This document shows, piece by piece, positions 10,267-64,000 of a stretch of DNA of 64,000 nucleotides; position 1 is the stretch's first letter; each line of letters starts with the position of its first letter. Origin of the DNA: Candidatus Shapirobacteria bacterium. Lineage in GTDB: Bacteria > Patescibacteriota > Microgenomatia > UBA12405. The notes below the pieces were generated by a model. The model did not search any database. It was not told the origin of the DNA and was given only the letters and a program-made list of their open reading frames with translations. The DNA lies in assembly GCA_022837635.1 (NCBI GenBank), contig JALHFY010000002.1, forward strand, positions 5,055 to 69,054, written 5' to 3'. Position numbers and translations under genes: made by a program.

Positions 10267-11013
10267 TTACATAAGTTCTGATAGATTTTGGAAGAGTGAG
10301 GCGATAGTCATGGGGCCGATACCGCCGAAGGTAGGGGTAATGTAAGCAGCTTTTTGAGAACAGGAAGCAAAATCAATATCGCCATTAGCCACATCGACAA
10401 TCACACTCCCCTCTTGGACCATATCACCGGTAATCAAGTGTTTAACCCCGGTGGCGGAAATTAAAATATCGGCAGTTTTGGTAAATTGAGAAATATCGGG
10501 GGTTTGATTGTTGAGGAGAGTAATGATGTTGGTAAATTGAGAAAAATATTTTTTGAGAGGTTGACCAACTAAATCAGAGTCGTTGACGACAACGATATTT
10601 TGATTTTTGAAAGAAATTTGATAGTGAGATAAAAGAGTAATGATACCTTTGACGACCGCTGGTAAAACACCTGAATCAGGGTTAAGACCGTCGACATCTT
10701 TGGTGGGAGAAATCAGACCCAGAAGTTCTTTTTGAGGGTAATTTTTAGGTAAAGGTAATTGAATAAAAAACCCAGAGACATCAGTTTTATTATTTAATTG
10801 AGTAATTAATTGTTTCAAAACCTGGGGCTCGGTTTCAGTCGGTAAATGATAGAGTCTAAAGTTGACACCAAGACGAAGACTGGCCTGTTTTTTGAGGTCG
10901 ATATATTTGAGACTGGAGGGATCATTGCCAACCAAAATAACATCCAAATTGGCATTCAGTTGAAGACTGTTAAGAATTTGTTCAGAGAGGTTTTTGCCGT
11001 CAAGGAGAATCAT
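10267..11013 (-). CDS. folD: bifunctional methylenetetrahydrofolate dehydrogenase/cyclohydrolase
   Basis: ...VILVGNDPSS..YI..K...DVDGL...GSVIVDVA...TPTFGGIGPMTIA matches FolD. Confidence 0.8.
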   Translation of the reverse strand: MILLDGKNLSEQILNSLQLNANLDVILVGNDPSSLKYIDLKKQASLRLGVNFRLYHLPTETEPQVLKQLITQLNNKTDVSGFFIQLPLPKNYPQKELLGLISPTKDVDGLNPDSGVLPAVVKGIITLLSHYQISFKNQNIVVVNDSDLVGQPLKKYFSQFTNIITLLNNQTPDISQFTKTADILISATGVKHLITGDMVQEGSVIVDVANGDIDFASCSQKAAYITPTFGGIGPMTIASLFQNLSELM

Positions 11014-49999: not shown

Positions 50000-50260
50000 A
50001 TGAATTATTACCTTTATATATTAAAAAGTTGTGATGGTAAACATTGGTATACAGGCTCGACAAGCAATATAATGTTGAGACTAAAACACCATAATAATGG
50101 TCATACATTTTCCACTAAACCGTATAGACCATGGAAATTAGTTTACTACGAAAAATTTAGTAGCCGGAAAGAAGCTTTTCGGAGAGAAATGTTTTTAAAG
50201 TCTCCGTCCGGTTATCAAGATTATTTGAAAATTAAAAAATCTATTGGAGGGGTCGGATAG
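50000..50260 (+). CDS. small GIY-YIG nuclease-family protein
   Basis: YYLYILKSCDGKHWYTGST...RLKHHN...; GIY-YIG core in 86 aa. The 3' end overlaps the first 15 nt of tRNA-Ser. Confidence 0.7.
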   Translation: MNYYLYILKSCDGKHWYTGSTSNIMLRLKHHNNGHTFSTKPYRPWKLVYYEKFSSRKEAFRREMFLKSPSGYQDYLKIKKSIGGVG

Positions 50261-50331
50261 TGGTTCATTCCACAGACCTGGAAAGTCTGCGGCCTTCATC
50301 GGCCTCGCGGGTTCGAATCCCGCCCCCTCCG
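50246..50331 (+). tRNA. tRNA-Ser (GGA), type II
   Basis: Acceptor GGAGGGG/CCCCTCC, discriminator G, D-arm GGA-TAGTGGTTCAT-TCC, anticodon loop CTGGAAA, long variable arm GGCCTTCATCGGCC, T-arm GCGGGTTCGAATCCCGC; CCA not encoded. Confidence 0.8.
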
Positions 50332-50376
50332 CTAAAAACTACACAAAACTATTATGAGGTATTAAAATCTAATAGA

Positions 50377-52216: not shown

Positions 52217-52729
52217 TTATTTCTTAGCCTTGAGGAGAGCTACAAGACGGGCATGGGCTTTTTTGAGAAGATTACGTTCAAAATCATAGGCTAGTTTTTT
52301 GAGAGCTTCGTCATAGTGGTACCATTCACGACCAATAACAGTCTCGGAATCGTAATATTTTAGATTGCTGTCTTCACGATATTCCATCAGAAAAAAAGTG
52401 ACTTTTTTGATAATTTTTTTGTTGGTAACTTCGTCCCAGATAATATAATCTCTCGAACCGATTTTATCGATAATGGTGGCTTTGATGCGACCTTCTTCTT
52501 CCACTTCGCGAATGGCGGCTTGTTTTAGGACTTCACCGGGATTGAGATGACCTTTGGGAAACTTATAAATAGTATGGCGGGTTTTTTGACCGTGGCGCAA
52601 AGTACGTTTTTTGGAGAGAGTTTTGATGACAAACCAGAGAATTTCCCCATTGTTGACACGATAAACGATGCCTCCGGCGGAGCGTTCATCATAATTTAAA
52701 TTAGCCTGTTTTTGGGGAGTTTTGGTCAT
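52217..52729 (-). CDS. NUDIX hydrolase
   Basis: Nudix box [23 protein letters not shown]. Confidence 0.75.
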
Positions 52730-52751
52730 GAGATATTATACAATACGGGGG

Positions 52752-52825
52752 TATACCCGAGAGGATTTGAACCTCCAACCTTCAGCTTCGGAGGCCGACG
52801 CTCTATCCAATTGAGCTACGGGTAT
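52752..52825 (-). tRNA. tRNA-Arg (CCG)
   Basis: Minus-strand cloverleaf with acceptor ATACCCG/CGGGTAT, U8A9, D-arm GCTC-AATTGGATA-GAGC, anticodon loop CTCCGAA, T-arm GGAGGTTCAAATCCTCT, discriminator A. Confidence 0.7.
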
Positions 52826-52832
52826 GGGTCCC

Positions 52833-53183
52833 CTATTTTACCTCAATTTTAGCCAATTCGTCGTTAAGTTCGCCGGTAAACATCTCTGCCGGTCTAAAGC
52901 CGACAAAATCTTTGATAATTTTACCTTGATAAAAAAGTTTCAGGTTGGGAATGCTCATAATTTGATAATCAAAGGCTAGAGAACGGTTGTCAGATTGTTC
53001 GGTGTCTACTTTGGCGACTTTGAGTTTACCGTCAAATTGTTTGGCAATCTCTTCCAGAACTGGGGCCATCATTTGACAAGGTCCGCACCAAGGCGCCCAA
53101 AAATCGACTAAAACCGGTAATTTTTCGTCTAAAACTTCAGTTTTGAATTGGTCGACACCAAGAATGTTAAGAGGTGGTGACAT
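52833..53183 (-). CDS. trxA: thioredoxin
   Basis: [13 protein letters not shown] active site. Confidence 0.85.
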
Positions 53184-53406
53184 ATTTTTTTAAGTTAATT
53201 AATAATTTTTTATCGCTTTTTTTAAGTTTGGGAAAGCAAGAATCAAACTGCTCTTCGACAATAGTGGTAGTGAGACTGGAAAGAGCTGATTTAGCGGCTT
53301 TGAGTTGAGTCAAAATTTGCAGACAATCGGCCTGAGAATTCAGCATTTTTTTAATACCTTCCAGTTGCCCGATAATATTGTTGAGGCGTTGCTGTTTTGA
53401 TTTCAT
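53167..53406 (-). CDS. CsoR/RcnR/FrmR-family metal-sensing transcriptional repressor
   Basis: 79 aa, ...RLNNIIGQLEGIKKML...DCLQILTQLKAAKSAL... four-helix pattern with a conserved Cys (W-X-Y-Z position). Confidence 0.65.
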   Translation of the reverse strand: MKSKQQRLNNIIGQLEGIKKMLNSQADCLQILTQLKAAKSALSSLTTTIVEEQFDSCFPKLKKSDKKLLINLKKYVTTS

Positions 53407-53421
53407 AATTTACTTTAACAT

Positions 53422-53438
53422 ACACCCCCTGGGGGTGT
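53422..53438. promoter_or_regulatory. G/C-tract palindromic operator (CsoR-type) in the csoR / yibE-F divergent intergenic region
   Basis: ACACCCCC-T-GGGGGTGT, resembling CsoR/RcnR operators (TAC/G-tract palindromes). Confidence 0.45.
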
Positions 53439-53467
53439 CAAGAAATAAAGATGGAGTAAAATAATTT

Positions 53468-54517
53468 ATGAAAAAAATCTTAGTATGGTTAACCCTGTGG
53501 TGCTGGATAATTAATCCAAAAATAGTGGTAGCAAAGAATCCAAGTGTCGGTTTTCAGGGTGAGGTGGTGGAAATTTTAGAGGAAAAAGAGATTGAGGTGA
53601 TGGAGAAAAAACAATGGTATCAAAAGTTGGTGGTGGAAAGTTTGGATAAAAGTCAGCAGGTAGAAATAGAAAACGGCAATGATCCCCTGGCCAACGTGGT
53701 CAAATATCAAGTGGGTGACCAGGTGATAGTTAACACTGAAGGGGAAGCTTATATTGTCGATTTTGTGAGAAGCAAAGCGTTGGTGTGGTTAGCAATAATT
53801 TTTGTGGGATTGTTAATCGCGGTGGCCGGGAGTCGCGGGGCATGGTCGCTGTTGGCGATGGGAGTAACTTTCTTGGTCGTATTTTGGTTTATGTTGCCAC
53901 GGATTTTGGCGGGAGATAATCCGGTAGTGATCGCCATTTTGTCATCTTTGTTTATCATCCCGGTAACTTTTTATATGTCTCACGGTGTTAATCGTAAAAC
54001 GACGATTGCCATTATCGCCTCGGTAATTACTTTAATAATTGCGGCAATATTGGGATGGATTTTTATCAAGTTGGGTTATTTAACCGGATTGTCTTCGGAG
54101 GAAGCGGGAATGTTGGCTTTGGATAAAAGTAATTTACAAATGCGAGGGGTATTGTTGGCGGGAATGGTAATCGGGGCCTTGGGAGTGTTGGATGATATCA
54201 CTGTGTCACAGTCGGCCATTGTAGAGGAATTGGCGACCACAGCCGAGTTAAAAAAAGCCAAAGATTTGTACAATCGGTCGATGGTGGTGGGCAAGGATCA
54301 TATTACTTCAATGGTAAATACTTTAGTGTTGGCTTATGCCGGAGCGGCCATGCCCTTGATGTTAATCTTTGTGAATAATCCCCACCCTTTTGGAGAAATT
54401 ATTAACTATGAAATGATAGCTGAGGAAATTATCCGCACCTTGGTGGGTAGCATTGCTCTGATTTTAGCGGTGCCGATCAGTAGTTTTATCGCCGCGAATT
54501 GGAAGAGGGAGAGTTAA
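53468..54517 (+). CDS. YibE/F-family polytopic membrane protein
   Basis: Signal/TM, an about 100-aa extracytoplasmic domain, then 7-8 TM helices with Gly-rich segments; family assignment by architecture. Confidence 0.5.
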   Translation: MKKILVWLTLWCWIINPKIVVAKNPSVGFQGEVVEILEEKEIEVMEKKQWYQKLVVESLDKSQQVEIENGNDPLANVVKYQVGDQVIVNTEGEAYIVDFVRSKALVWLAIIFVGLLIAVAGSRGAWSLLAMGVTFLVVFWFMLPRILAGDNPVVIAILSSLFIIPVTFYMSHGVNRKTTIAIIASVITLIIAAILGWIFIKLGYLTGLSSEEAGMLALDKSNLQMRGVLLAGMVIGALGVLDDITVSQSAIVEELATTAELKKAKDLYNRSMVVGKDHITSMVNTLVLAYAGAAMPLMLIFVNNPHPFGEIINYEMIAEEIIRTLVGSIALILAVPISSFIAANWKRES

Positions 54518-55065
54518 GAACTTTTCACCTGTAAAAATCGGTTGGATTGGTAAAAAGATTCGACACTTCCGAGTTGCCACCAACCTGTCAATTCTGGTTG
54601 AATAATTAATTCCGGCTGATGAAAGGGAACACGTCCGGGAGATAAAGTTAAACTCAAAGGATGTGTGCCCCGACTATCTCTAATTTGAATTAGCTCTTGG
54701 CCTTCAAAAACAGTACCCAGCCTAAATAGTGATCTACGAATAGCAATATCTTGGAGATGAGTATGAACGGTTTCTTGAATGGTGTAATCAAGACCAGAAT
54801 GAACATTGCTGGGATGATCATCATACACATCAGAGGCACTGGAAACTAAATCCTTAAGAATCAATCGATTATTTTTTAAAAAAATAAAGTAGGCGTCCTC
54901 ATATATTTGACAGGCTTGGATAAAATCTAAATTACAGCGACCAAATTTCCAAATTAGATGCCAATTACCAGGCCCATAAGACTGATCCCAAAGACGATAT
55001 TTTTCATCTCTTTTAGAGCCTAAATAACCAACTTGTTGATTTAGTGTTTCGTATTCGCAATTCAT
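54514..55065 (-). CDS. hypothetical protein
   Basis: 183-aa ORF with no confidently recognised motif. Confidence 0.3.
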   Translation of the reverse strand: MNCEYETLNQQVGYLGSKRDEKYRLWDQSYGPGNWHLIWKFGRCNLDFIQACQIYEDAYFIFLKNNRLILKDLVSSASDVYDDHPSNVHSGLDYTIQETVHTHLQDIAIRRSLFRLGTVFEGQELIQIRDSRGTHPLSLTLSPGRVPFHQPELIIQPELTGWWQLGSVESFYQSNRFLQVKSS

Positions 55066-55097
55066 AGACGAACTTTAAACTGAAATCATTTGAAAGT

Positions 55098-55119
55098 CTA
55101 GTAAAGTCGACTTCACTAG
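55098..55119. promoter_or_regulatory. 22-bp near-perfect palindrome (core AAGTCGACTT) upstream of the wHTH-NUDIX gene, followed by -10 TATAAT
   Basis: CTAGTAAAGTCGACTTCACTAG; TATAAT at 55139-55144; a related copy sits upstream of the paralog at 63211-63224. Confidence 0.45.
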
Positions 55120-55150
55120 ATTTCAGAAAAGGGCGGGCTATAATCCCCTT

Positions 55151-55840
55151 ATGGAAGAACTACATGAATATCAATTTTCAATTTTAAGAACTTTATTATT
55201 TAAACCAGGAGCACGATTTTCCGAATTAAATAAAGTCGGTATAAGTAGTGATCATTTTAATTTTCATGTTAAACAATTGAGTAATTGGGGTTTGGTTAAA
55301 AAGGAAAATCAAAGATACTTTTTGACTAATAAAGGTAAGGAATTGGCGGGGAGGATGGATACTGATCAACTGACGATAGAGAAACAAGCCAAGTTGGGGG
55401 TGGCATTACATGCTGTTCGTAAGAATAAGGGAGTGACGGAATATTTAATTCATCATCGATTAAAAGAACCACTGTATGGTTGGTACGGTTCACATTCAGG
55501 CAAAATTCGTCGGGGAGAAAATCCGGAAGAAACCGCCAAACGAGAGTTTTTTGAGGAAACAGGTTTAACAGGTAAATTTAGTCTGAAAGCGATTAAGCAA
55601 CAACGAGAATTTGATGCTACCGGGAAATTGTTAGAGGATAAATATTTTTGGGTCTATCGAGTGGATGATGTCCAAGGTACGTTGAAAGAAAAGGTAGAGG
55701 AGGGGGAAAATTTGTGGATGACAAAAGAAGAAATTAAAAAACTAAAAAATGTGTTTGCCAGTTTTGAGGAAATGTATGAAGTTTTGGAGAGTCAAGAAGT
55801 GTTGATTTTAAGAGGTGACAGGACGCTGGAAAAATATTAA
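55151..55840 (+). CDS. winged-HTH + NUDIX hydrolase fusion protein (paralog A)
   Basis: N-terminal approx. 70-aa wHTH (ILRTLLFKPGARFSELNKV...HVKQLSNWGLV); C-terminal Nudix box GKIRRGENPEETAKREFFEETGL. Confidence 0.65.
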   Translation: MEELHEYQFSILRTLLFKPGARFSELNKVGISSDHFNFHVKQLSNWGLVKKENQRYFLTNKGKELAGRMDTDQLTIEKQAKLGVALHAVRKNKGVTEYLIHHRLKEPLYGWYGSHSGKIRRGENPEETAKREFFEETGLTGKFSLKAIKQQREFDATGKLLEDKYFWVYRVDDVQGTLKEKVEEGENLWMTKEEIKKLKNVFASFEEMYEVLESQEVLILRGDRTLEKY

Positions 55841-56455
55841 TTAATCTAACAAATGGGCTTGGTCGTTCCAGCATTTAAGTTGCCAGGGGCCGTGTTCGTT
55901 GGTCAAAATGGAAATACCAGTATTGCCTAATCTAAGGAATTTTCTTGAATCGATGACAATTTGAGGAGTGAGATTATCGCCAAAAAAGAGAAGAGAGGTG
56001 AGGAAACTGATGAAGTTACCATGAGAGACAACTAAAATATTGTCTTGATTAAATGACTCTAAAAATTTGATAGCCTGGTATCCCCTCTTTTGTAAATCAT
56101 AAAAATTTTCTTCATCGGAATAGTGCCAATGGGGGTCGGAGACAAATTTTTCTTTAATTTTTTTTAAAACAGAGGTTACCTGAGGATTTTCATAGGCGAG
56201 ACCGACAATTTCTGAAGGTTTTCTAGTTTCAATAAAAAGATCACTGGCGATAACTTTTTTAGAAATAAAATTGGCAGTTTGAAGGGCTCTGGTGTAGGAG
56301 GAAGAAACAACTAAATCTAATTTAAAATCTTCGAAACGATGGGCTAATTTTTTAGCTTGCTCCAGTCCCTTGTCATTGAGAGGCTCATCAGGAGTTTGAG
56401 TTTTGGCCTGTTGACGGGCATCAGTGGCCCCATGACGAACAAAATAAAGGTTCAT
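55841..56455 (-). CDS. histidine-phosphatase superfamily protein
   Basis: YFVRHGAT (RHG motif), ...SSYTRALQTA..., ...VVSHGNFI; overlaps the upstream NUDIX gene by 4 nt (operon). Confidence 0.7.
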   Translation of the reverse strand: MNLYFVRHGATDARQQAKTQTPDEPLNDKGLEQAKKLAHRFEDFKLDLVVSSSYTRALQTANFISKKVIASDLFIETRKPSEIVGLAYENPQVTSVLKKIKEKFVSDPHWHYSDEENFYDLQKRGYQAIKFLESFNQDNILVVSHGNFISFLTSLLFFGDNLTPQIVIDSRKFLRLGNTGISILTNEHGPWQLKCWNDQAHLLD

Positions 56456-56943
56456 ATTTTGTGTGCGTATTTTTCATCAAAGATTTTAATGACATGGTCA
56501 ATTTTGGAGGGGTCGATTTGGCGAGTTTGCATAATTTCTTCGATAAAAGGACGAAGTTCAACATAAGTAAGGTGAGTACTGGGAGTCAATTTTAATTTAG
56601 CCACCTCGTCAAGAGTAAACCAAGCGATACCTTGACCTTCACCGGGACCAAGTTTAAATTTGTCTTCATCTGCCTTGTCAACAAAAGCGACAAAAACATG
56701 GACATTTTCGCCACGACTGCCCCGACGGGTAAGAACATGTTGACAATGTGGCAATCTAACGGAAACTTCTTCCTCAACTTCACGAAGCACGGCCTCGCGG
56801 GGACTTTCCCCCGGCTCAATGCCACCACCGACTATTTGCCAACAATCAGGTGAAGGAATAGTGGGAATGTTGTCCCGATGAAAAAGAAGAACTTTGTCAG
56901 GGCTCATGATTAAAGCACTAGCACCATCTTTGACTCTTTCCAT
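56452..56943 (-). CDS. NUDIX hydrolase
   Basis: Nudix box GGGIEPGESPREAVLREVEEEVSV. Confidence 0.75.
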   Translation of the reverse strand: MERVKDGASALIMSPDKVLLFHRDNIPTIPSPDCWQIVGGGIEPGESPREAVLREVEEEVSVRLPHCQHVLTRRGSRGENVHVFVAFVDKADEDKFKLGPGEGQGIAWFTLDEVAKLKLTPSTHLTYVELRPFIEEIMQTRQIDPSKIDHVIKIFDEKYAHKI

Positions 56944-57004
56944 GAGAATATTGTATCGCTAATGGATATAGACTGATTGAAAAGAAGTTGGAGGAAAGAG
57001 GAAA

Positions 57005-57421
57005 TTATTTCAACAGGGATTTAAACTCGGGATAATTTTCGGCGATAATTTTTTTCCATTTGTCGGTTTCTCGAGGTTCACCAATTTCGTTTTTGGAATA
57101 CACCAACAGGATTCTGATAGTTTTTTTATGGGAATCAACGGCGGCAATAAGGCGATTGCCTGAACTTTTGGCGGAAATATTGCTACCGGCAATCTTAAAA
57201 TCAAGCTTAACAATCATCCAGGAATCAATGGGACAGATAATATCCAACTGTGCGGTGTTGGAAATATGCTTGGGAGCAATATTATCATAACGACGAAGAA
57301 ATTCTCTGATGGCAGTTAAAGTGACATTCCAGGCTTTACCTTTATATTTTTTGGAAAACTTGCGAATATAGTGATTTTCGGCAAATCTTTCAATAAAAAC
57401 TGAATAGTCATTAGTAGACAT
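57005..57421 (-). CDS. putative toxin of a Panacea-type toxin-antitoxin pair (family unknown)
   Basis: 138-aa basic protein whose start overlaps the 3' end of the HTH-Panacea gene by 11 nt; no known toxin motif recognised. Confidence 0.4.
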   Translation of the reverse strand: MSTNDYSVFIERFAENHYIRKFSKKYKGKAWNVTLTAIREFLRRYDNIAPKHISNTAQLDIICPIDSWMIVKLDFKIAGSNISAKSSGNRLIAAVDSHKKTIRILLVYSKNEIGEPRETDKWKKIIAENYPEFKSLLK

Positions 57422-58091
57422 AATCGGGGTCCTGTTGGGTGATTAATTCGTAAGGTATCACTTCCCCGGGGTTACAAATTTGATAAGGAAGTTGCTGATG
57501 AGTGAAATCAACGATTTCTGAAGTTCTTTTACCTTTCCATTTTTGGGCAATTTTCTGGATTAATTGTTGTTCTTGAGTATTTAAGATTTTGGATTGGAAT
57601 TGCTGGCCGGTATCGCTAAGACTAATCAATTGACTATTGTCTTTGAAGAGAATATTGATTTTTCCATCTAAAAAAAGTTCATCAATGGCCCGAAAATAGT
57701 GGTTGGGAACAGGACCTTGGTCCAAACGGCGATATTGAGCACCGGTCATTGGTTCTAGTTGTGAATAAAACCAGGCAAAATCAGCTAAGTAAATGAGTTT
57801 AGCAAGTTTGGTTTTGGTCATTTGACCGTCATCATCGGCACCATATTTGAGCATGTTTAACAAAACTTCAGTATATTTTTCTTCGTTTAAGATGTTTTCG
57901 GAAATGATATCAGTAGTACCAACACCGAGTCTGTTGGCCAAATTGCTAACTTGGTTCAAGGTTAAATTGGGACTACCGTTTTTTTCCAGGGCGATATAGG
58001 TGGCACGAGAAATACCTAGAGCGGCAGCCATTTGGGCTTGAGTCCAACCTTGATTTTTACGTAACTTGGCAATGTATTGTGCATCAATCAT
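57411..58091 (-). CDS. XRE-family HTH + Panacea (DUF4065) domain antitoxin-like protein
   Basis: N-terminal HTH (LRKNQGWTQAQMAAALGISRATYIALEKNG); C-terminal ...KTKLAKLIYLADFAWFYSQLEPMTGAQY..., typical of Panacea/SocA-like domains. Confidence 0.65.
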   Translation of the reverse strand: MIDAQYIAKLRKNQGWTQAQMAAALGISRATYIALEKNGSPNLTLNQVSNLANRLGVGTTDIISENILNEEKYTEVLLNMLKYGADDDGQMTKTKLAKLIYLADFAWFYSQLEPMTGAQYRRLDQGPVPNHYFRAIDELFLDGKINILFKDNSQLISLSDTGQQFQSKILNTQEQQLIQKIAQKWKGKRTSEIVDFTHQQLPYQICNPGEVIPYELITQQDPDYVY

Positions 58092-58115
58092 GCTTTAGTT
58101 TAGTTCTGAGTGGTA

Positions 58116-58140
58116 AAAATGTCAAATTTTTTGACATTTT
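58116..58140. promoter_or_regulatory. inverted repeat operator upstream of the HTH-Panacea gene
   Basis: AAAATGTCAAA-ttt-TTTGACATTTT about 25 nt upstream of the start, plus a third half-site AAAATGTCA at 58167-58175. Confidence 0.4.
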
Positions 58141-58221
58141 AATGTAAAAAATGGGGACAGGATTTGAAAATGTCACACTGGATAAAAAGTCAGGTGGAGG
58201 AATATTTACGACCACAAAATA

Positions 58222-58785
58222 TTATTTTTTAAGAGATATATTTGACTGTGAATTACGAAAAGTTGCGGTAATTTTGGTAAATATGTGACGTGGATGATCG
58301 TTGTTTTGATCAAAAGTCATCTTTTCATTTTTTGGTTCTATGAAAAGTTGAGCTTTATCTTTGCTTTTTCGACTGCCAGCCAACACCATTAATTGAGCTT
58401 CATTTTTTTTATTTTTAGAAATTTTAACTTCAACCCAATAATCATCATCAGATTTGTGTTCATTTTTAACTTTTATTAATTCTCCGTCTATATTAATAAT
58501 GTCTGCATTTTTAAACTTAAATGACTTGGAAATGCTTATAAAGTCTTCTGTTTTTTCCTCAATTGGCTTATCAAGAGTAATTTTAAAATCACAGTTTATA
58601 CACTCATACTTGTATTCCCCTATAGAATACTTTTCTTTAGATTTTTTTAGATTGCAATTACATTTAGGGTTTGGACATAATGGAGTTGTGTGGGTACTTA
58701 TAGAACCACTAAAAGGATTCTTGACATAAAACAAATGCCAATTAATTTTATGCCAATGATATATTATTAGTTTTTTGTGTTTCAT
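58222..58785 (-). CDS. hypothetical Cys-rich protein (very AT-rich gene)
   Basis: CPNPKCNC...CINC zinc-ribbon-like motifs; Lys-rich; compositionally aberrant. Confidence 0.3.
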   Translation of the reverse strand: MKHKKLIIYHWHKINWHLFYVKNPFSGSISTHTTPLCPNPKCNCNLKKSKEKYSIGEYKYECINCDFKITLDKPIEEKTEDFISISKSFKFKNADIINIDGELIKVKNEHKSDDDYWVEVKISKNKKNEAQLMVLAGSRKSKDKAQLFIEPKNEKMTFDQNNDHPRHIFTKITATFRNSQSNISLKK

Positions 58786-58925
58786 ACTTTTGTATAAATT
58801 TATGAAATGTACATTATATATACCGAAATAAACCCGAAGTCAAGAGGTGTGATTTAATCAATATTAAGAATGAATATTGAAAATTAACTACTTTACTTCG
58901 GGTATTGATCGGGTAATATGTAAGT

Positions 58926-59708
58926 ATGGAAGTGTATTTTAAACAACCGAATTTCTGTCTTTATAAAGGTGATTGTGTACAGGTGTTAAAAAAAATTAAA
59001 AACAATTCGGTTGATATGATATTTGCCGATCCTCCTTACTTTTTATCAAACGGTACCTTTACTTGTAAAAATGGGAAAATGGTTAGTGTCAAAAAAGGTG
59101 AATGGGATATGGGAAAAAGTTTAAAAGAAAATTTAAAATTTCATACCAAGTGGATAAAAGAATGTAAAAGAGTATTAAAACCTGAAGGTACCATATGGAT
59201 TAGCGGAACTTACCATTCAATATATCAATGTGGTTTTGCTTTACAAAAAAATGATTATAAAATTTTAAATGAAATAGTTTGGTATAAACCTAATGCTTCA
59301 CCGAATTTAAGTTGTCGATTTTTTACAGCCAGCCATGAGACTTTGATTTGGGCTCGGAAAGACAAAAAAGCTAAACATACTTTCAATTATGATGTGGTTA
59401 AAAATAATGATTGGCCCAAAGACTTTTTGAAAAAGAAAGGTTTTCAAATGAGATCAGTTTGGGCTATTTATACCCCAAGAAAAGAAGAAAAAGTTTTTGG
59501 AAAACATCCAACCCAAAAATCACTCGAACTGCTCAATAGAATCATCCTGTCGAGTACAAAAAAAGGAGATATTGTTTTGGATCCATTTACAGGAAGCTCA
59601 ACCACTGGTATTGCAGCCATAACAAATGATCGGCAATTTTTAGGGATAGACACTGAAAAGGAATATTTAGATTTGTCAATAAAAAGATACAAAGCTTTGA
59701 TAAAATAA
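58926..59708 (+). CDS. beta-class N6-adenine/N4-cytosine DNA methyltransferase (DpnA/MboIC-like)
   Basis: Motif IV FADPPYF near the N-terminus and motif I VLDPFTGSSTTG near the C-terminus (beta permutation). Confidence 0.8.
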   Translation: MEVYFKQPNFCLYKGDCVQVLKKIKNNSVDMIFADPPYFLSNGTFTCKNGKMVSVKKGEWDMGKSLKENLKFHTKWIKECKRVLKPEGTIWISGTYHSIYQCGFALQKNDYKILNEIVWYKPNASPNLSCRFFTASHETLIWARKDKKAKHTFNYDVVKNNDWPKDFLKKKGFQMRSVWAIYTPRKEEKVFGKHPTQKSLELLNRIILSSTKKGDIVLDPFTGSSTTGIAAITNDRQFLGIDTEKEYLDLSIKRYKALIK

Positions 59709-59712
59709 AGAC

Positions 59713-60252
59713 ATGATACAAGGTGGTGTTGGTGGAGCTAACACAAAAACAGGCTTATATTATGAAGGTAAGGTGGATCTGCTGACATTTATAGCTTCTA
59801 AAAAAGGTTATTCTATAAAGGATAATATTGTTTATTTTCACGGGAAAGAAGTTGCTCAAACATTTAAGAAACATGCTCTCTATACATACTTGGCTAAACG
59901 AGGAATAAATTATAAAGATTACATATCAAAAAAATTATTACCAGATGATTCGATTTTTGTAATAGTCAAAAATACTTTATTTATCATAGAAGTGAAGTTT
60001 CAAAGAGTAGCAGGTTCTACGGATGAAAAACTACAAACTTGTGATTTTAAAATCAAACAGTACAGAAAACTATTATCAAGATTAAATATAGAAGTAAAGT
60101 TTATTTATATTCTCAACAGAGAATGGTTTGATAAACCGGTGTATAAAGATGTACTTGATTACATTGTTTCGATAGATGGTTGTCGGTATTATTTTGACTA
60201 TCTGCCATTACATGAACTTGGTTTACCAGTACCTGATGGTGAAAATGACTAA
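59713..60252 (+). CDS. putative PD-(D/E)xK restriction endonuclease (small)
   Basis: LPDD...IIEVKFQ resembles the PD-(D/E)xK motif; positioned between two MTase genes; start 5 nt after the MTase stop. Confidence 0.4.
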   Translation: MIQGGVGGANTKTGLYYEGKVDLLTFIASKKGYSIKDNIVYFHGKEVAQTFKKHALYTYLAKRGINYKDYISKKLLPDDSIFVIVKNTLFIIEVKFQRVAGSTDEKLQTCDFKIKQYRKLLSRLNIEVKFIYILNREWFDKPVYKDVLDYIVSIDGCRYYFDYLPLHELGLPVPDGEND

Positions 60253-61100
60253 TAGCTGGTAATAATTAGTTCTTTGATTTTTCCTCTTTTCTCTCCTTTG
60301 CTATTAATTGAACGAGCTGAGTATACTTCATGAATATTAAACGGCTGATACAGCTTTCTAATGAAATCTGTATTGGAATTACTTAACATAACAAAACATC
60401 CTTTTTGGTGTAGTTGTTTAAAAGTTTCTGATAATTTTATTTGTTCCTTGAAAGTAAAATTATTTTTTGAGTAATTGGTAAAGTTGGCGGTGGTGTTTAA
60501 TGGATAATAAGGAGGATCGAAATAAATAAAATCACTTTTTTTACAAGTTTTTATTGATTCCTCAAAAGAAGTACTAGTAATATGAGTATCGTGTAAGGTG
60601 TGGGATACGGCTTGAATATTACCTACGTCGCAAATGGTTGGGTTGGGTTGATCGCCAAAGGGAATATTATATTCACCTTTGGAATTTTCACGATACATTC
60701 CGTTAAAACAAGTTTTGTTAAGGAAAATAAGATAGGCGCAGTAAGTTAAATTGTCTAATGAATTTTGATTATATTCTTGGCGAATTTGATAAAAATATTT
60801 TTTTTGATTATCTAAATTAAGTTTTTTGTATTCCTTTTCTATATTTTTTAGAAGTTTGATCAAGGAATCAGGATCCTGCTTGATAATTTCATAACAGTTC
60901 ATCAGTTTTTTATTAATATCATTGATATAAGAATGATTTGTGATGAGTTTTTTATTAGACAATTCAAAGAATAAGGCTCCCCCTCCCATAAATGGTTCGT
61001 AATAATTATTGATTTTGTTAGGGATCAGTTTCGAAATCTCCGGGATGAGTTTACTTTTTCCTCCAACCCATTTAACGAATGGTTTTGCTGGTTTTGTCAT
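60249..61100 (-). CDS. Dam-family (alpha-class, D12) N6-adenine DNA methyltransferase, probably GATC-specific
   Basis: VKWVGGKSKLIPEI, YYEPFMGGGALFF (motif I), DPPYYPL (motif IV); collinear with E. coli Dam/DpnM. Confidence 0.85.
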   Translation of the reverse strand: MTKPAKPFVKWVGGKSKLIPEISKLIPNKINNYYEPFMGGGALFFELSNKKLITNHSYINDINKKLMNCYEIIKQDPDSLIKLLKNIEKEYKKLNLDNQKKYFYQIRQEYNQNSLDNLTYCAYLIFLNKTCFNGMYRENSKGEYNIPFGDQPNPTICDVGNIQAVSHTLHDTHITSTSFEESIKTCKKSDFIYFDPPYYPLNTTANFTNYSKNNFTFKEQIKLSETFKQLHQKGCFVMLSNSNTDFIRKLYQPFNIHEVYSARSINSKGEKRGKIKELIITSY

Positions 61101-61154
61101 GAATTAGTTATTATAACTTTTTACTAAAGGAAGTTATACTTAGTCATTAATAAA

Positions 61155-61817
61155 ATGAAGCAAAAAGAGTTGGAGAAAATACAGGCGGAATATAAGAGGA
61201 TTTTTGGAAATGTATGGGAGAAAGGTGGGGGTTGGGGGTATAGATACAAACATGGCGTCAGGGTGATGCGATATTGTCAAAAAATTGTCAAATATAATCG
61301 TTTTAAGAAAGAAAAATTGGATATAGAGGCGCTGTTGGTGGCGGCCTTGTTTCATGATATCGGCAAAATCAGGGCGGTGAACAAAAACAGAGAATTGGTA
61401 TATGGTAATTATGGCGGAGAAACACATGAGGCTTTAGGAGCAAAATTGGCGCCAAAATATTTGAGGAAATTTGTTAAAGATAAAAATAAATTGGAGTTGA
61501 TTTCACTGTTTATTGCCGAACAAGAACCAGAAAAAAGTGAAATCAGGACCGAATCAAAAATTATTAAAGACGCCGATAGATTGGATCATTTCGGAGTTAT
61601 TCATTTGTTGGTATCGGCGGTATATGCCAATTACAACCGTAAAAATATTGAGGGATTACGGGAATTTTGGGAGGGAGAGGAAGGTAAGAAAAAATATTTG
61701 AGAAATTTTGAAAAATTTAATTTTCCGGAGGTAAAAAAGGTGGCGATGAAGAGATTTGCTAATTTAAGTCGGGCGACGGAGCTAATTTTTGAAGAGGATG
61801 AAGGGAGAGATCTTTAG
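61155..61817 (+). CDS. HD-domain phosphohydrolase
   Basis: ...ALLVAALFHDIGK... HD motif, ...DADRLDHFG... Confidence 0.7.
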   Translation: MKQKELEKIQAEYKRIFGNVWEKGGGWGYRYKHGVRVMRYCQKIVKYNRFKKEKLDIEALLVAALFHDIGKIRAVNKNRELVYGNYGGETHEALGAKLAPKYLRKFVKDKNKLELISLFIAEQEPEKSEIRTESKIIKDADRLDHFGVIHLLVSAVYANYNRKNIEGLREFWEGEEGKKKYLRNFEKFNFPEVKKVAMKRFANLSRATELIFEEDEGRDL

Positions 61818-62332
61818 GAATTGTTAGGGTGGAGTTGGTGGTATTTTTTTAGGGCCGTGGTAAAGAGCTGATCACCGGTTTTGCCCCAGCGCAGATATTT
61901 AGGTAAATCCGCGGGATCGATAAAGATTCTTTGATGAATCTGACCACTTTCCGGATCGATTTGTGGTTTGAGAATTTTTTTAATATCGGCGATGTAAAAC
62001 ATTTGAATGAACCACGGTTGTTGACTATTGGCTTTTTGGACTTTGAAACCACCAACCAGCTGAGGATTTTGAAGTAAAACATTGGCTTCTTCTTCAATTT
62101 CTCGATGTAAAGTTTCTAGAAATGTTTCTGTAGACTTGGGGCTACCACCAGGAAATCTAAGTTCTCCATTTTCTCTGATGATCATAACTTGGCCGGTGTG
62201 GTCAAAACAAATACCACTGACAAGTGTCTTTTTGGATTTTTGTAAATCCGGATCTGATTCGTTGAGCCATTGGTAATAATAATCTTCCCCTCTCCAGTTG
62301 ACAATGATGAAATTATTTTTGATAGTGGACAT
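61814..62332 (-). CDS. NUDIX hydrolase
   Basis: Nudix box GGSPKSTETFLETLHREIEEEANV; overlaps the HD gene end by 4 nt. Confidence 0.7.
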   Translation of the reverse strand: MSTIKNNFIIVNWRGEDYYYQWLNESDPDLQKSKKTLVSGICFDHTGQVMIIRENGELRFPGGSPKSTETFLETLHREIEEEANVLLQNPQLVGGFKVQKANSQQPWFIQMFYIADIKKILKPQIDPESGQIHQRIFIDPADLPKYLRWGKTGDQLFTTALKKYHQLHPNNS

Positions 62333-62444
62333 AATGATATTTTACTAGGAAGATTGTGGGTTTTGTGAAATCAGTCTATAATTCGGTAGAGATGATGAGG
62401 TGGTGGAAGTTGGGGAAAGAATTTTATACTGTAAAAGAAACGGG

Positions 62445-63152
62445 TTAGAACTCATCACCATAGCTGTGTAGTAATTCATAAAATGGCACATTGTTTATCG
62501 CCATATTCATTTCCAGTTCGAAACTTTTGTAAGTCTTTTCATTTTTCATGACGTAATCCATGGTTTGCCAGCTGTTTCTGCCACCCTCGTACTCTTCCAT
62601 TAATTTTCCTGATGATTTGTCACAAAACATCAAATGAAAAATCTTATCTTCAATTATCTCGTGAGTCTTTTCGTGTAAAACTCGTTCGTGAAAAACGCCA
62701 CGATGCTCAAAAATTCCTTTAAGCCCCGTCTCTTCTATCAGTTCGCGACTAGCGGCGGCAGGAATTGATTCGCCCCAACGAATTTTGCCAGTTGGCGCGC
62801 CACAAAATCCATAATATGGATGCTTAAGTCGTTGCTGAATTAAGTAGTGTTTTTTGCCGTTAATTTCTTTTTCGACCACCAACATAACGGAAACTTTCGG
62901 CTGTCTTTCAATCACGCCTGCGTCAGTGTCAAGTTTGTTGGCATATTCGCGACCTTTGATTGACAATTGGTATTTGCCGGATGTTGTTTTATCAACGTAG
63001 CCTGTTTGAACTAATCGTTTGATGTGAAATTTGGCGTGGTCGCTTTCTAGTCCGGTGATTTTTTGTAAATTAGTAAAACTGGTAGCGGGCAAGAATAATA
63101 ATTCTCGCAAAATTTTGGTTTGGGCTTGATGAATTTCACCTTCAAATGCCAT
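62445..63152 (-). CDS. winged-HTH + NUDIX hydrolase fusion protein (paralog B)
   Basis: N-terminal wHTH (ILRELLFLPATSFTNLQKI...HIKRLVQTGYV); Nudix box GKIRWGESIPAAASRELIEETGL. Alignable over its full length with the 55151 gene. Confidence 0.65.
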   Translation of the reverse strand: MAFEGEIHQAQTKILRELLFLPATSFTNLQKITGLESDHAKFHIKRLVQTGYVDKTTSGKYQLSIKGREYANKLDTDAGVIERQPKVSVMLVVEKEINGKKHYLIQQRLKHPYYGFCGAPTGKIRWGESIPAAASRELIEETGLKGIFEHRGVFHERVLHEKTHEIIEDKIFHLMFCDKSSGKLMEEYEGGRNSWQTMDYVMKNEKTYKSFELEMNMAINNVPFYELLHSYGDEF

Positions 63153-63210
63153 ATTTCCTCCTAATTAACTTTATAAAAAGCAGTATAATCCATATAAAAC
63201 GAAAGTCTAG

Positions 63211-63224
63211 GGAAGTCAACTTCC
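63211..63224. promoter_or_regulatory. palindromic operator copy (GGAAGTCAACTTCC) upstream of wHTH-NUDIX paralog B
   Basis: 22 of 25 nt identical to the element at 55091-55115 (GAAAGTCTAG[T/G][A/G]AAGTC[G/A]ACTTC); minus-strand -10 TATACT nearby. Confidence 0.4.
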
Positions 63225-63285
63225 GTAAATGGATAAATCCATTAAAACTGACTAAGTTTAGTAATCCAGTTCTCAGAGAGAAGAT

Positions 63286-63680
63286 GAAAAGGTTTTTTAA
63301 GGAGGAAGGTAAAACAAATTCCTGTTCATCCGGAAACTCCATTTAGTTTGGTGCAAATAGAAGGGGGATATGCGGATAATATTGTGCCCGATAGAGCCAG
63401 TGCGTTTTTTGATTTGAAACCATCACCAAATGGCAAAAATGATTATTCACAAATCTTTAATCAAGTTTTAAATCAAAAAAATGTCAAAGTTGAAGTGTTA
63501 ATGTCGGTGCCAGCGGTGAGTTTTTCAATCCCTAAGGAATTCGAGTTTTTAGGTGAAGGACAAGGAGTCAAATATTTTACAGAGCTGTCGTTTTGTAAAA
63601 ATGGACTAGTGTTGGGACCGGATGAAAAAATTAAAAAGACAGAATTGGAAAAAGCGGTCGATGTTGTTAAGTATTTTTAA
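63286..63680 (+). pseudogene. C-terminal remnant of an M20-family peptidase
   Basis: ...VQIEGGYADNIVPDRASAFFDLKP... matches the M20 dimerisation-domain motif (I/V)xxGGxxxNV(I/V)PD, but the frame opens only about 20 codons upstream (stop), so the catalytic domain is missing. Confidence 0.4.
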
Positions 63681-64000
63681 TTAACCATTGTCCAAGTTGA
63701 TCCCAAGCGTCTCCCCAAACTTCAACTTGTTCCGGAGTGCTTAGTTCAGCTAGTGTTTTTTTCTTACTAGGAACGTAGAAAATTAAATCATAATTCATGC
63801 CGTTAGTACCTCTTTTCTCTTGAATAATCTGTCCATAACCTCTTGAACTAAATATTTTTATATTGGTACCGTCAGTGTACCCAATGGTACGTTGAACATA
63901 AGCAATATTTTTATTATTAGCTATCCCTTTAACCAATCTCATTAATCCGTCCTCACCAATCGTTTTTATAGCGTATTTAGTATAAGGACCAGGAAAACCA
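63667..64000 (-). CDS. hypothetical protein, 5'-partial (continues beyond window end)
   Basis: The frame stays open from the window edge through ...GFPGPYTKYAIKTIGEDGLMRLVKGIANNKN...; no family recognised. Confidence 0.3.
   Translation of the reverse strand, partial: GFPGPYTKYAIKTIGEDGLMRLVKGIANNKNIAYVQRTIGYTDGTNIKIFSSRGYGQIIQEKRGTNGMNYDLIFYVPSKKKTLAELSTPEQVEVWGDAWDQLGQWLIKNT

Follow-up and report, generated by a model that had tools for sequence, protein, structure and literature searches.

Two winged-helix-Nudix fusion proteins as probable autoregulated regulators acting on promoter-overlapping palindromes

BirA is a bifunctional enzyme-repressor, or "trigger enzyme". Enterobacterial NadR is likewise a bifunctional enzyme-repressor, and NrtR proteins are Nudix-related transcriptional regulators (PMC2330246). 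In NrtR a Nudix-fold effector and a winged-helix DNA-binding domain are joined in one protein, the metabolite-sensing Nudix domain controls transcription, and the palindromic operators, about 21-22 bp long, are often found at the gene for the regulator itself. Hydrolases of the MTH1 (NUDT1)/MutT type, including the uncharacterized Bacillus halodurans "MutT" 3fk9, retain an intact catalytic box, and the known enzymes are single-domain proteins without a DNA-binding function. Mycobacterial MutT1 consists of an N-terminal Nudix domain and a C-terminal RHG histidine-phosphatase domain (PMC11784022).

Here, we analyzed a 64-kb stretch of DNA (the window) encoding two proteins, para1 and para2, in which a winged helix-turn-helix (wHTH) domain is joined to a Nudix domain (Table 1). 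Our data suggest, with a probability of roughly 0.65, that both are one-component, autoregulated Nudix "trigger-enzyme" regulators that would bind palindromes overlapping their own promoters in a ligand-responsive manner, para1 also controlling the divergent gene unk183. The fusions appear to work like NrtR without being members of NrtR, and they look like nucleotide sensors rather than anti-phage parts. The preliminary description of this locus called them a reversed analogue of NrtR, which is apt as a description of their working: both pair a Nudix domain with a winged helix and a palindromic operator, but in the fusions the wHTH is N-terminal and comes from another family (HTH_45/DUF7347/ArsR-MarR-like), and the operator sequence is unrelated. 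In addition, no NAD genes were found in the neighborhoods examined, and the Nudix box, degenerate in many NrtR proteins (PMC2330246), is strictly conserved in the fusion family. Like NadR and BirA, the fusions combine an N-terminal HTH with a catalytic domain that would act on the sensed metabolite, and they are proposed to sit as a dimer on a palindromic operator, although they share neither catalytic fold nor pathway with those two proteins.

Table 1. Positions in the window of the genes, promoters and operators discussed.
Feature	Coordinates	Strand	Basis and remarks
Nudix 170 (170 aa)	52217-52729	-	Pfam; adjoins tRNA-Arg
unk183 (183 aa), CPR-wide conserved family of unknown function	54514-55065	-	Probable para1 co-regulated target
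Mirror promoter of divergent gene unk183	55072-55100	-	-35 TAGACT 55100-55095, 17-nt spacer, -10 TAAAGT 55077-55072; read from sequence
para1 operator CTAGTAAAGTCGACTTCACTAG	55098-55119		22-bp palindrome, one mismatched pair; PWM 28.0 and 27.8 on the two strands
para1 promoter	55117-55144	+	-35 TAGATT 55117-55122, 16-nt spacer, -10 TATAAT 55139-55144; read from sequence
para1, wHTH-Nudix fusion (229 aa), Microgenomates-type	55151-55840	+	Pfam NUDIX and sub-threshold DUF7347/HTH_45
Histidine phosphatase, His_Phos_1 (204 aa)	55841-56455	-	Pfam E 2e-29; RHG motif intact
Nudix 163 (163 aa)	56452-56943	-	Pfam NUDIX E 6e-20; leads two-gene unit with histidine phosphatase
Strain-variable cassette (context only, outside the regulator system)	58167-61705		Pfam; replaced in L081 and L082
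HD-domain phosphohydrolase (220 aa)	61155-61817	+	Pfam HD; convergent with Nudix 172
Nudix 172 (172 aa)	61814-62332	-	Pfam; downstream of para2
para2, wHTH-Nudix fusion (235 aa), Saccharibacteria-type	62445-63152	-	Pfam NUDIX
para2 promoter	63182-63209	-	-35 TAGACT 63209-63204, 16-nt spacer, -10 TATACT 63187-63182; consensus scan
para2 operator TTACGGAAGTTGACTTCCCTAG	63207-63228	-	Core GGAAGT-N2-ACTTCC; PWM score 33.6

We found that para1 and para2 are full-length paralogues (41% identity over 207 aa, E 3e-48). The N-terminal domain gives weak wHTH matches in Pfam and the PDB, its profile matches AspA, MarR and ArsR-type wHTH proteins, and HTH_45 is above the Pfam threshold in family members. 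In the AlphaFold2 model of para2 (pLDDT 90), residues 9-63 form a wHTH with helix-helix-helix-wing topology and residues 86-231 a Nudix fold, so that both the paralogy and the wHTH fold put forward in the preliminary description hold. A search with the N-terminal domain returned 302 cluster representatives, the full-length ones about 222-241 aa long, and a C-terminal Nudix domain was present in 9/9 divergent representatives tested. More than 1085 homologues of para2 share 60-87% identity with it, and its orthologues occur in at least 352 species-representative genomes. para1 is 58-64% identical to proteins of Woesebacteria and Daviesbacteria, and against any copy from Saccharibacteria its identity is only 41-47%.

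The structures nearest to the para2 Nudix domain are MTH1, 3fk9 and 3exq, with the Nudix domain of NrtR (3gz8) in 7th place; the best sequence match is 3fk9 (E 1.2e-10), and MTH1 was matched by Foldseek (E about 1e-9). The Nudix boxes of para1 (GKIRRGENPEETAKREFFEETGL) and para2 (GKIRWGESIPAAASRELIEETGL) are both intact, and R136, E137, E140 and E141 of the catalytic box are invariant among 25 sequences from both clades. The domain most resembles MTH1/MutT-type nucleotide-sanitizing enzymes, with every catalytic-box residue kept, and among the neighbors of its relatives are genes for sanitation and repair (Ham1, UDG, AlkD-like gene, NDT-like ORF). Identity to the known enzymes is only 16-20%, however, and their substrate-specifying residues cannot be matched in the fusions.

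Each fusion gene is preceded by a palindrome. Their common element, AAGTYGACTTCNCTAGA, occurs in the window solely at 55097-55120 and 63206-63229 (4 matches, two sites on both strands, versus 0.82 expected; reached by 0/100 shuffles), and a motif scan of the 64 kb found the operator at no other promoter. Symmetry extends over 22 bp in the para1 site versus 14 bp plus flank in the para2 site. Near-identical palindromes next to a -10 box had been described previously; both sites are real, but the palindrome abuts the -35 hexamer, whose first bases are the TAG of its right flank, and the -10 box follows after another 16 nt. The para1 -10 box is 6 nt from the ATG, a geometry that suggests a leaderless transcript, and para2 has an AGGAGG Shine-Dalgarno sequence 5' of its ATG at 63152. 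The para1 operator is common to two divergent promoters, that of unk183 also leaving 6 nt between its -10 box and the ATG at 55065.

We found a GGAA-N6-TTCC or TAAA-N6-TTTA site at approximately 95% of orthologues across 80 Saccharibacteria genomes and Microgenomates. A position weight matrix (PWM) derived from 40 unique sites gives scores of 19-36 bits 5' of orthologues; in the 80 loci scanned (about 1.06 Mb, about 16 kb per genome), its other strong matches fell only at second wHTH-Nudix paralogues (L016, L014) or mis-called gene starts, and no regulon beyond the own gene and its immediate neighbor was found in these 16-kb regions. Within a metagenome collection, 11 of 14 exact palindrome matches lay about 45 nt 5' of a para2-type gene. 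The para1-type site recurs in the Microgenomates loci L097, L098, L122 and L124 and is degenerate in L092 and L096, and the para1-type locus L123 has no obvious operator. The core is symmetric in 47-51 of 51 sites, depending on the position, and the left flank is free, while the right flank CTAG is invariant in these sites, which could stem from RNA polymerase contacts alone. TAnnnT follows the flanking TAGnnn after 16-18 nt in 64 of 65 unique orthologous contexts, versus approximately 8% by chance.

The recognition helix reads DHFNFH in para1 and DHAKFH in para2. DHxKFH pairs with GGAAGT half-sites in about 65 loci and DHx(N/T)FH with T(A/G)AAGT half-sites in 13 loci, with zero exceptions. 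This correlation of Lys versus Asn/Thr with half-site type could stem from a single evolutionary switch, and it therefore fits direct readout but is not a statistically independent proof of it. Because the operator is conserved across the phylum, the promoter register is fixed and the recognition-helix residue co-varies with the site, the fusions very probably bind their own upstream palindromes, in line with the autoregulation proposed earlier.

We propose that the wHTH-Nudix protein binds its operator, probably as a dimer, at GGAA-N6-TTCC for Lys-type para2 and at T(A/G)AA-N6-TT(C/T)A for Asn/Thr-type para1. The operator would be centered around position -43 in the sigma-70-type promoter that drives the protein, over the first -35 bases, and since it overlaps the -35 the protein would control its own synthesis. 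Two promoters in mirror image flank the para1 operator, so para1 probably also controls unk183, a probable co-regulated target. unk183 accompanies a para1-type gene in the window as well as in the Microgenomates loci L097 and L124, with promoter-like geometry on either side of the operator; in L097 and L124, TAGnnn-17-TAnnnT is again present on the unk183 side. No solved fold matches the confident model of the unk183 family. The C-terminal Nudix domain would bind, and probably hydrolyze, a nucleoside di- or triphosphate-type ligand, whose occupancy or turnover may alter DNA binding and so make the protein a "trigger enzyme". Positions -42.5/-43.5 are the classic class II activator position, and activation would also fit an operator placed there; repression by -35 occlusion may, by analogy, be slightly favored. 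The basis for this reading is comparative (operator, promoter register, recognition-helix correlation, fixed domain architecture and intact Nudix box), and from it we infer DNA binding, dimerization, ligand dependence, ligand identity and regulatory sign.

An intact Nudix box suits a sensor and a plain enzyme equally, and we considered whether the fusions act simply as Nudix enzymes, with a wHTH used, for example, in nucleic-acid targeting or dimerization and the palindrome being a promoter element or another factor's site. The MTH1/MutT-like fold agrees with this, as does the invariant CTAG flank, which acts as part of the -35 hexamer, and structure and literature searches found no solved structure of, or paper on, the wHTH-Nudix family. 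We regard this as unlikely, since the palindrome occurs only 5' of genes of this family, second paralogues included, and its half-site type follows a recognition-helix residue of the family itself, whereas a generic promoter element would be expected at other genes and is absent there. A palindrome could also form an RNA hairpin that serves the upstream gene as an intrinsic terminator or acts as an attenuator in the 5' leader. In oral Saccharibacteria, where TTTTT comes after a perfect palindrome, folding is indeed stable (L006: -15.3 kcal/mol, z -3.0), and in unrelated marine contigs of 29% GC the same 22-mer is terminator-like 3' of an ORF. The upstream gene, however, is divergent in 54 of 75 loci and needs no terminator there, left-arm substitutions lack compensation, folding of L044 is not above background (z +0.34), and the predicted fold at para2 in the window skips the palindrome. 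Neither the para1 nor the para2 site was called a terminator or matched Rfam, and the -10 box at a fixed distance puts the palindrome upstream of the transcript, which together make a hairpin very improbable.

All five intact Nudix-box ORFs of the window (PF00293) lie at 52.2-63.2 kb, as earlier stated, and a sixth Nudix gene is located just past the window end, beside Ham1, UDG, ThyX and Tmk. A coordinated system processing nucleotide derivatives had been suggested; in a version independent of defense, the five Nudix genes would form one such pathway with the histidine phosphatase and the HD hydrolase, under both regulators. The density of Nudix genes favors this, as do three Nudix genes within 3.2 kb of a Woesebacteria locus and the same-strand, 4-nt overlap of Nudix 163 with the histidine phosphatase, correctly described before, which echoes the fused MutT1 architecture. 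Here the two domains are separate polypeptides, the MutT1 NCBIfam model matches only Nudix 170 and the two fusions, far below cut-off, and not Nudix 163, and the pairing is absent in L097, where a 47%-identical histidine-phosphatase homologue lies near the para1-type gene without a Nudix partner. The overlap of Nudix 172 with the HD gene (61814-61817) also exists, but the genes are convergent on opposite strands and it is no operon junction; Nudix 172 has its own -10-like TAAAAT 6 nt 5' of its ATG. Furthermore, the operator is at no other window promoter, the single-domain Nudix genes resemble one another only in the Nudix box, and only 4 extra Nudix-box ORFs occur in the 1.06 Mb around the 80 orthologues, 2 of them second regulator copies. 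Loci with 82-86% identical orthologues have no neighbor in common with the window. In the sister strain L082 (~95% DNA identity), homology resumes only at 61706, so that all but the last ~112 nt of the HD gene is replaced, and Nudix 172 is kept apart from para2. A single pathway is thus doubtful, though less so than the other alternatives.

The preliminary description also raised an undescribed defense or counter-defense module turning over a signaling nucleotide, and defense genes of the kinds it named do occur within the region or next to it: GmrSD, a Panacea toxin-antitoxin pair, two methyltransferases and a PD-(D/E)XK-like ORF. PADLOC adds weak matches to the candidate Nudix model PDC-S07 (best E 5e-12, Nudix 163) and a Csa3-type wHTH, but these reflect generic domain similarity. 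It is the defense genes that vary: L081 lacks GmrSD, and in L081 and L082 the RM cassette (a 187-aa ORF, an N6/N4 methyltransferase, the PD-(D/E)XK-like ORF, a Dam-like methyltransferase and the larger part of the HD gene) is swapped for DUF3800 and a type IIG RM gene, with the Nudix genes retained at ~95% DNA identity. Orthologues in 80 genomes adjoin housekeeping, repair and nucleotide genes (NDT-like ORF, AlkD-like gene, UDG, HD, PheT), and no wHTH-Nudix protein was found in viral contigs, which makes such a module quite improbable. The Nudix cluster is a lineage-specific juxtaposition, not one machine, of a native nucleotide-sanitation neighborhood, strain-variable RM, toxin-antitoxin and type IV insertions, and a block of unk183, para1 and the histidine phosphatase that was probably acquired from Microgenomates.

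The two fusion genes of the window, para1 (Microgenomates type) and para2 (Saccharibacteria type), encode proteins that share 41% identity over 207 residues. The preliminary description had proposed that each begins with a wHTH domain, and the AlphaFold2 model of para2, built from a 25-sequence alignment with a mean pLDDT of 90, bears this out. Residues 9-63 fold as helix-helix-helix-wing, i.e., a three-helix bundle (helices 9-19, 26-33, and 37-50) with a recognition helix and a two-strand beta-hairpin wing (53-63, strands 53-55 and 61-63), as in the ArsR/MarR/PadR-like wHTH clan. A linker helix follows the wing and leads into an alpha/beta/alpha Nudix fold (86-231). In Pfam and NCBIfam scans, similarities of the DNA-binding domain were limited to HTH_45, DUF7347, HVO_A0261_N, Sso10a, and MarR-like domains; HTH_45 exceeds the Pfam cut-off in family members P0453 and P0478 and stays below it in para1 and para2. 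An N-terminal 86-residue profile gave weak matches in the PDB to AspA, MarR, and ArsR-type wHTH proteins. When the para2 model was compared with the PDB by Foldseek, its Nudix half alone was matched (MTH1, B. halodurans 3fk9, and L. brevis 3exq); MTH1 and MutT structures could be superposed on the model. No full-length structural homologue of para2 was found in the PDB by Foldseek (query-normalised TM-score equal to or below 0.50), which indicates that no solved protein has the wHTH-Nudix architecture.

Searching 1.84 billion representatives with the N-terminal 91 residues gave 302 matches, the full-length ones being approximately 222-241 aa. All nine divergent N-domain matches tested proved to have a NUDIX domain at the C-terminus, and HTH_45 passes the threshold in two of them. 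The para2 family occurs in at least 352 species-representative genomes. We retrieved 80 para2-type loci; nearly all are from Saccharibacteria or Saccharimonadia, and one is a complete oral-taxon genome. para1 shares 58-64% identity with Woesebacteria/Daviesbacteria proteins and 41-47% with any Saccharibacteria copy. Across the 25 family members compared, from both clades, the Nudix-box residues R136, E137, E140, and E141 do not vary and, judged by sequence, the Nudix domain is catalytically competent. Two other Saccharibacteria loci encode a second wHTH-Nudix paralogue 2-3 kb from the first (L016, 10841-11619; L014, 10306-11139). These second copies have a TGAAGT-type operator and form a third lineage, with 44-47% identity to both window paralogues; the L016 copy has an Asn-type recognition helix.

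In NrtR a Nudix domain at the N-terminus precedes a winged-helix domain at the C-terminus (PMC2330246). The fusions were initially described as a reversed-architecture analogue of NrtR, and this comparison holds: in the para2 model and its Pfam coordinates the wHTH precedes the Nudix domain, and the NrtR Nudix domain (3gz8) ranks seventh among the Foldseek PDB matches. The characteristic NrtR C-terminal DNA-binding domain was not found in the fusions, which have HTH_45, DUF7347, and MarR-like similarities instead. Furthermore, NrtR controls genes of NAD synthesis or salvage and ADP-ribose acts as its anti-repressor, whereas no NAD-pathway genes occur among the conserved neighbours of the 80 orthologous loci or in the window. 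The NrtR operator is a palindrome of approximately 21 bp, often at its own gene, while that of the fusions is 22 bp, a likeness in mechanism and not in sequence. Overall, the fusion system works like NrtR, and fails NrtR membership on domain order, DNA-binding family, and NAD regulon. It also resembles enzyme-repressors such as NadR. We found no description in the literature of a regulator with an N-terminal wHTH and a Nudix domain, nor of Nudix proteins in Saccharibacteria. Our data support placing the fusions among Nudix-domain transcription regulators.

We found that the 130 nt upstream of orthologues (80 loci) have little in common beyond one element, with the consensus CTAGGGAAGTCGACTTCCCTAG(A/T)TTTT. 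This 22-bp palindrome lies upstream of approximately 95% of orthologues, which strengthens the original proposal that the paralogues share a palindromic operator. The para1-type element, (C)TA(G)TAAAGTCGACTTTACTAG, is found in a distant clade (L071-L079), at the second paralogues of L016 and L014, and in Microgenomates loci. Symmetry at the core positions (GGAA/TTCC or TAAA/TTTA) holds in 47-51 of the 51 unique sites; the left flank varies freely and the right flank, CTAG, is invariant, because the right flank belongs to the promoter. A TAGnnn hexamer begins within this right flank and is followed after 16-18 nt (mostly 17) by TAnnnT in 64 of 65 unique contexts (chance, approximately 8%), and a consensus promoter scan independently calls TAGACT-16-TATACT for para2. 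The fixed register places the operator centre at approximately -42.5 or -43.5, overlapping the -35 hexamer. Within the window the motif occurs at 55098-55119 and 63207-63228 and nowhere else, and a PWM scan of approximately 1.06 Mb of flanking DNA found strong sites solely upstream of wHTH-Nudix family genes. An exact-motif scan of metagenome contigs returned 14 loci, and in 11 of them a para2-type gene begins approximately 45 nt after the site. The remaining three (L099, L102, and L103) represent one unrelated marine locus of 29-31% GC, where the exact 22-mer CTAGGGAAGTTTACTTCCCTAG, then TTTT, follows a 63-aa ORF that itself lies downstream of a bacteriocin-type ABC transporter. This marine 22-mer looks like an intrinsic terminator, and perfect copies of the palindrome can thus arise for other reasons. 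The search for a regulon was positive upstream of orthologues and paralogues of the family, and no target beyond the family's own genes was found in the PWM scan (approximately 1.06 Mb and the window), the window pattern scans, or the metagenome exact-motif scan.

Could the palindrome be an intrinsic terminator or attenuator hairpin instead of a protein site? Such an element would be expected to have a conserved stem, kept by compensatory change, with a U-run after it and a transcribed gene upstream. The perfect palindrome of oral Saccharibacteria does fold stably (-15.3 kcal/mol, z -3.0). However, the Nanosynbacter-type site (L044) folds no better than background (z +0.34), the fold at the window para2 leaves the palindrome unused, and substitutions in the left arm are uncompensated. 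In 54 of 75 loci the gene upstream runs divergently, a -10 box follows the site at a fixed distance, and no terminator was called at the para1 or para2 site. Since we obtained no family match in Rfam, no conserved structure by folding, and no compensatory change in the left arm, we rejected an RNA element and retained the predicted protein-bound operator.

The recognition helix covaries with the half-site at the position of its Lys or Asn/Thr, which is K41 in para2. The motif DHxKFH is present in every protein with a GGAAGT half-site operator (approximately 65 loci), and DHx(N/T)FH in all 13 proteins with T(A/G)AAGT half-sites (para1, L092, L096, L097, L071-L077, L079, and L016b). Direct readout by the family's own wHTH would predict such a match; the correlation is supportive and not independent proof, since a single ancestral switch could underlie the pattern. 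It suggests that co-resident paralogues may not cross-talk.

The gene divergent from para1 encodes unk183, a 183-aa CPR-wide protein for whose predicted fold no solved structure gave a match. Within the 85 bp that separate unk183 from para1 lies a full 22-bp palindrome, with mirror-image promoters on either side. A para1-type gene and an unk183 homologue (62-64% identity) are also divergent in Microgenomates contigs L097/L098 and L124, with TAGnnn-17-TAnnnT on the unk183 side in those pairs as well. Several contigs are apparently common to the match lists of both proteins, which suggests that the linkage is recurrent, and unk183 homologues that do not adjoin a regulator (L113-L115) have no palindrome upstream. 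The unk183-para1 pair of the window is most similar to Microgenomates genes, and a protein with 47% identity to the nearby histidine phosphatase is encoded beside the L097 pair. Our data suggest that the unk183-para1-phosphatase block may have been acquired horizontally. unk183 is now tied to a specific proposed regulatory circuit, which gives a handle on its function.

A regular-expression scan of six-frame ORFs puts the number of Nudix boxes in the 64-kb window at exactly five, and one 11-kb stretch holds them all; the five genes fit the box GX5EX7REUXEEXGU and match PF00293 above threshold. They had been read, together with the histidine phosphatase and the HD gene, as a coordinated module with a possible defence or counter-defence role. 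We compared 19 window proteins by BLAST with the ORFs of the 80 orthologous loci, and the regulator itself was the sole match; whole-module synteny was rejected on this ground. The proteins around the window para2 have no counterpart around orthologues of 82-86% identity. Four further Nudix-box ORFs occur around the 80 orthologues, two of them second regulator copies, and the conserved neighbours in these loci are housekeeping or repair-type. In 48 of the 80 loci, all in Saccharibacteria, a 139-aa ORF absent from the window overlaps the 3' end of the regulator (e.g., L006:8686-9114 and L057:8686-9105), and beyond it lie either a weak HD protein or an AlkD-like protein of DNA-alkylation repair, followed by UDG and PheT. 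The 139-aa ORF has no match in Pfam, NCBIfam, or, as a single sequence, the PDB. Its motifs CGSYRRD ... DFxxLHxPxGYxGxSAAxEIGxA resemble nucleoside 2'-deoxyribosyltransferase (NDT)/DNPH1 enzymes and its sole PDB profile match, a weak one, is the nucleoside 2'-deoxyribosyltransferase 7O62 (E 1.5); we treat a putative NDT/DNPH1-like enzyme as a lead only. Contigs identical to the window that run past its end continue with Ham1, a sixth NUDIX, UDG, thymidylate kinase, and ThyX. The sequence of L087 (1-9802) beyond the right end of the window is a neighbourhood of nucleotide metabolism and sanitation: besides Ham1/RdgB and the sixth NUDIX, which is 148 aa long, it encodes a glyoxalase, a GT2 glycosyltransferase, UDG, thymidylate kinase, ThyX, an APH-type kinase, and NDK.

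A sister strain (contigs L081/L082, 95-97% DNA identity) is homologous to this region at 52428-58166 and 61706-62356 only. Window positions 58167-61705 are replaced there by DUF3800 and a 1029-aa type IIG (MmeI-like) enzyme, which removes the two methyltransferases, the nuclease, the 187-aa ORF, and a large part of HD; the replacement ends on the right within the HD gene, of which the last approximately 112 nt alone remain. The overlap between HD and the 172-aa Nudix (Nudix 172) is one of 3' ends of convergent genes. In addition, the sister strain lacks GmrSD, and its para2 does not adjoin Nudix 172. PADLOC-DB v2 returned generic matches only (PDC-S07 Nudix, best E 5e-12; Csa3/WH_III-A wHTH, E 1e-5 or weaker; Cas3/Cas10 HD), and no partner genes of known anti-phage systems lie beside the matched genes; a known anti-phage defence system was thus rejected. 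Viral contigs yielded generic Nudix matches alone and no wHTH-Nudix. Because of the strain swaps, the unconserved neighbours, and the generic PADLOC matches, we conclude that the defence genes were inserted as mobile segments into a neighbourhood of nucleotide housekeeping and that the Nudix cluster is a lineage-specific juxtaposition. This removes the tempting reading of the region as a new defence system as unsupported. Overall, the preliminary description is largely confirmed: its regulator and operator part is considerably strengthened, and its module and defence part is not borne out.

We propose that a dimeric wHTH-Nudix protein would bind the operator at approximately -43 and control its own promoter, and that at para1 the same protein would also control the divergent unk183 promoter. 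The Nudix domain would bind, and probably hydrolyse, a nucleoside di- or triphosphate-type compound, and coupling to ligand binding or hydrolysis would modulate DNA binding. By analogy with NrtR and MarR/ArsR-type proteins, we slightly favour repression through occlusion of the -35 hexamer; a class II-type activator would also suit the strictly fixed position beside often weak -35 hexamers (TAGTTT, TAGATT). As to the ligand, non-canonical (d)NTPs are suggested by the MTH1/MutT-like fold and by neighbours of the sanitation type, and ADP-ribose, as in NrtR, may serve instead. Saccharibacteria and other CPR bacteria have tiny genomes with few transcription factors or recognisable regulators and rely on salvaged nucleotides, and to our knowledge almost nothing is known of their transcriptional control. 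We give roughly one chance in four to a joint reading in which the fusions are catalytically active trigger enzymes that sense the quality or balance of the CPR nucleotide pool, with a small partner set and insulated paralogues. Transcription of the regulator and its partner would switch in response to a (d)NTP, either non-canonical or imbalanced, that the Nudix domain binds and hydrolyses. In most Saccharibacteria this partner would be the NDT/DNPH1-like enzyme, para1-type regulators would have unk183 as a CPR-wide enzyme, and the switch between Lys and Asn/Thr in the recognition helix would insulate co-resident paralogues. This phylum-wide regulator family offers testable predictions, namely a defined operator, a fixed promoter register, a candidate specificity residue, and an intact enzymatic sensor domain, which can be approached with purified protein and short DNA duplexes and in cultivated oral Nanosynbacter.

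Features of the region, with gene order from the ORF listing and Pfam/NCBIfam scans
Feature	Position	Strand	Remark
GIY-YIG ORF	50000-50260
tRNA-Ser	50246-50332		Overlapped by mechanical start of GmrSD ORF
GmrSD type IV restriction enzyme	~50377-52143	+	GIY-YIG ORF and tRNA-Ser ahead
NUDIX, 170 aa	52217-52729	-
tRNA-Arg	52750-52825	-
Thioredoxin	52833-53183	-
CsoR-like repressor	53167-53406	-
YibE/F membrane protein	53468-54517	+
unk183, 183-aa protein	54514-55065	-
unk183 promoter	TAGACT 55100-55095, 17 nt, TAAAGT 55077-55072	-	6 nt to ATG 55065
para1 promoter	TAGATT 55117-55122, 16 nt, TATAAT 55139-55144	+	6 nt to ATG 55151
wHTH-NUDIX para1	55151-55840	+
Histidine phosphatase	55841-56455	-	RHG motif present in translation
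NUDIX, 163 aa	56452-56943	-
Panacea-type toxin-antitoxin pair	57005-58091	-
187-aa ORF	58222-58785	-
N6/N4 methyltransferase	58926-59708	+
PD-(D/E)XK-like ORF	59713-60252	+
Dam-like methyltransferase	60249-61100	-
HD hydrolase	61155-61817	+
NUDIX, 172 aa	61814-62332	-
wHTH-NUDIX para2	62445-63152	-
Ham1/RdgB	63667-63942		Cut by window end

Mycobacterial MutT1 combines Nudix and RHG histidine-phosphatase domains in one polypeptide (PMC11784022). The 163-aa Nudix and the phosphatase of the window echo this fusion as two genes with a same-strand ATGA junction and a 4-nt overlap; a MutT1-type identity was rejected since they are separate polypeptides and neither matches the MutT1 equivalog model NF052459. 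Between the 163-aa NUDIX and the toxin gene, L081 has an insertion of approximately 387 bp (10285-10670) with a 144-aa ORF, without counterpart at window position 56968/56969. The GIY-YIG ORF and GmrSD sit between tRNA-Ser and tRNA-Arg in the window, and L081 has Peptidase_M15 and isochorismatase, and no GmrSD, upstream of the 170-aa NUDIX, which suggests a tRNA-flanked variable insertion. L081 also has, at 33-1714, adjoining genes for an Avd-like protein (bAvd/23S_rRNA_IVP), a reverse transcriptase (RVT_1), and an HTH protein, the layout of a diversity-generating retroelement. Between para2 and Ham1, a 110-aa ORF (63348-63680, +) with a weak sub-threshold match to the M20 peptidase dimerisation domain may be a gene remnant; in public contigs a 109-aa gene is called there on the opposite strand. 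Finally, para1 (55139-55151), unk183 (55065-55077), and Nudix 172 (62332-62346, with its own -10-like TAAAAT) each lack a Shine-Dalgarno and have a -10-like hexamer whose end lies exactly 6 nt ahead of the ATG, which suggests that their mRNAs may be leaderless, with predicted transcription starts at the A of the ATG for para1 (55151) and unk183 (55065); para2, with a predicted start at approximately 63175, differs in having an AGGAGG leader.
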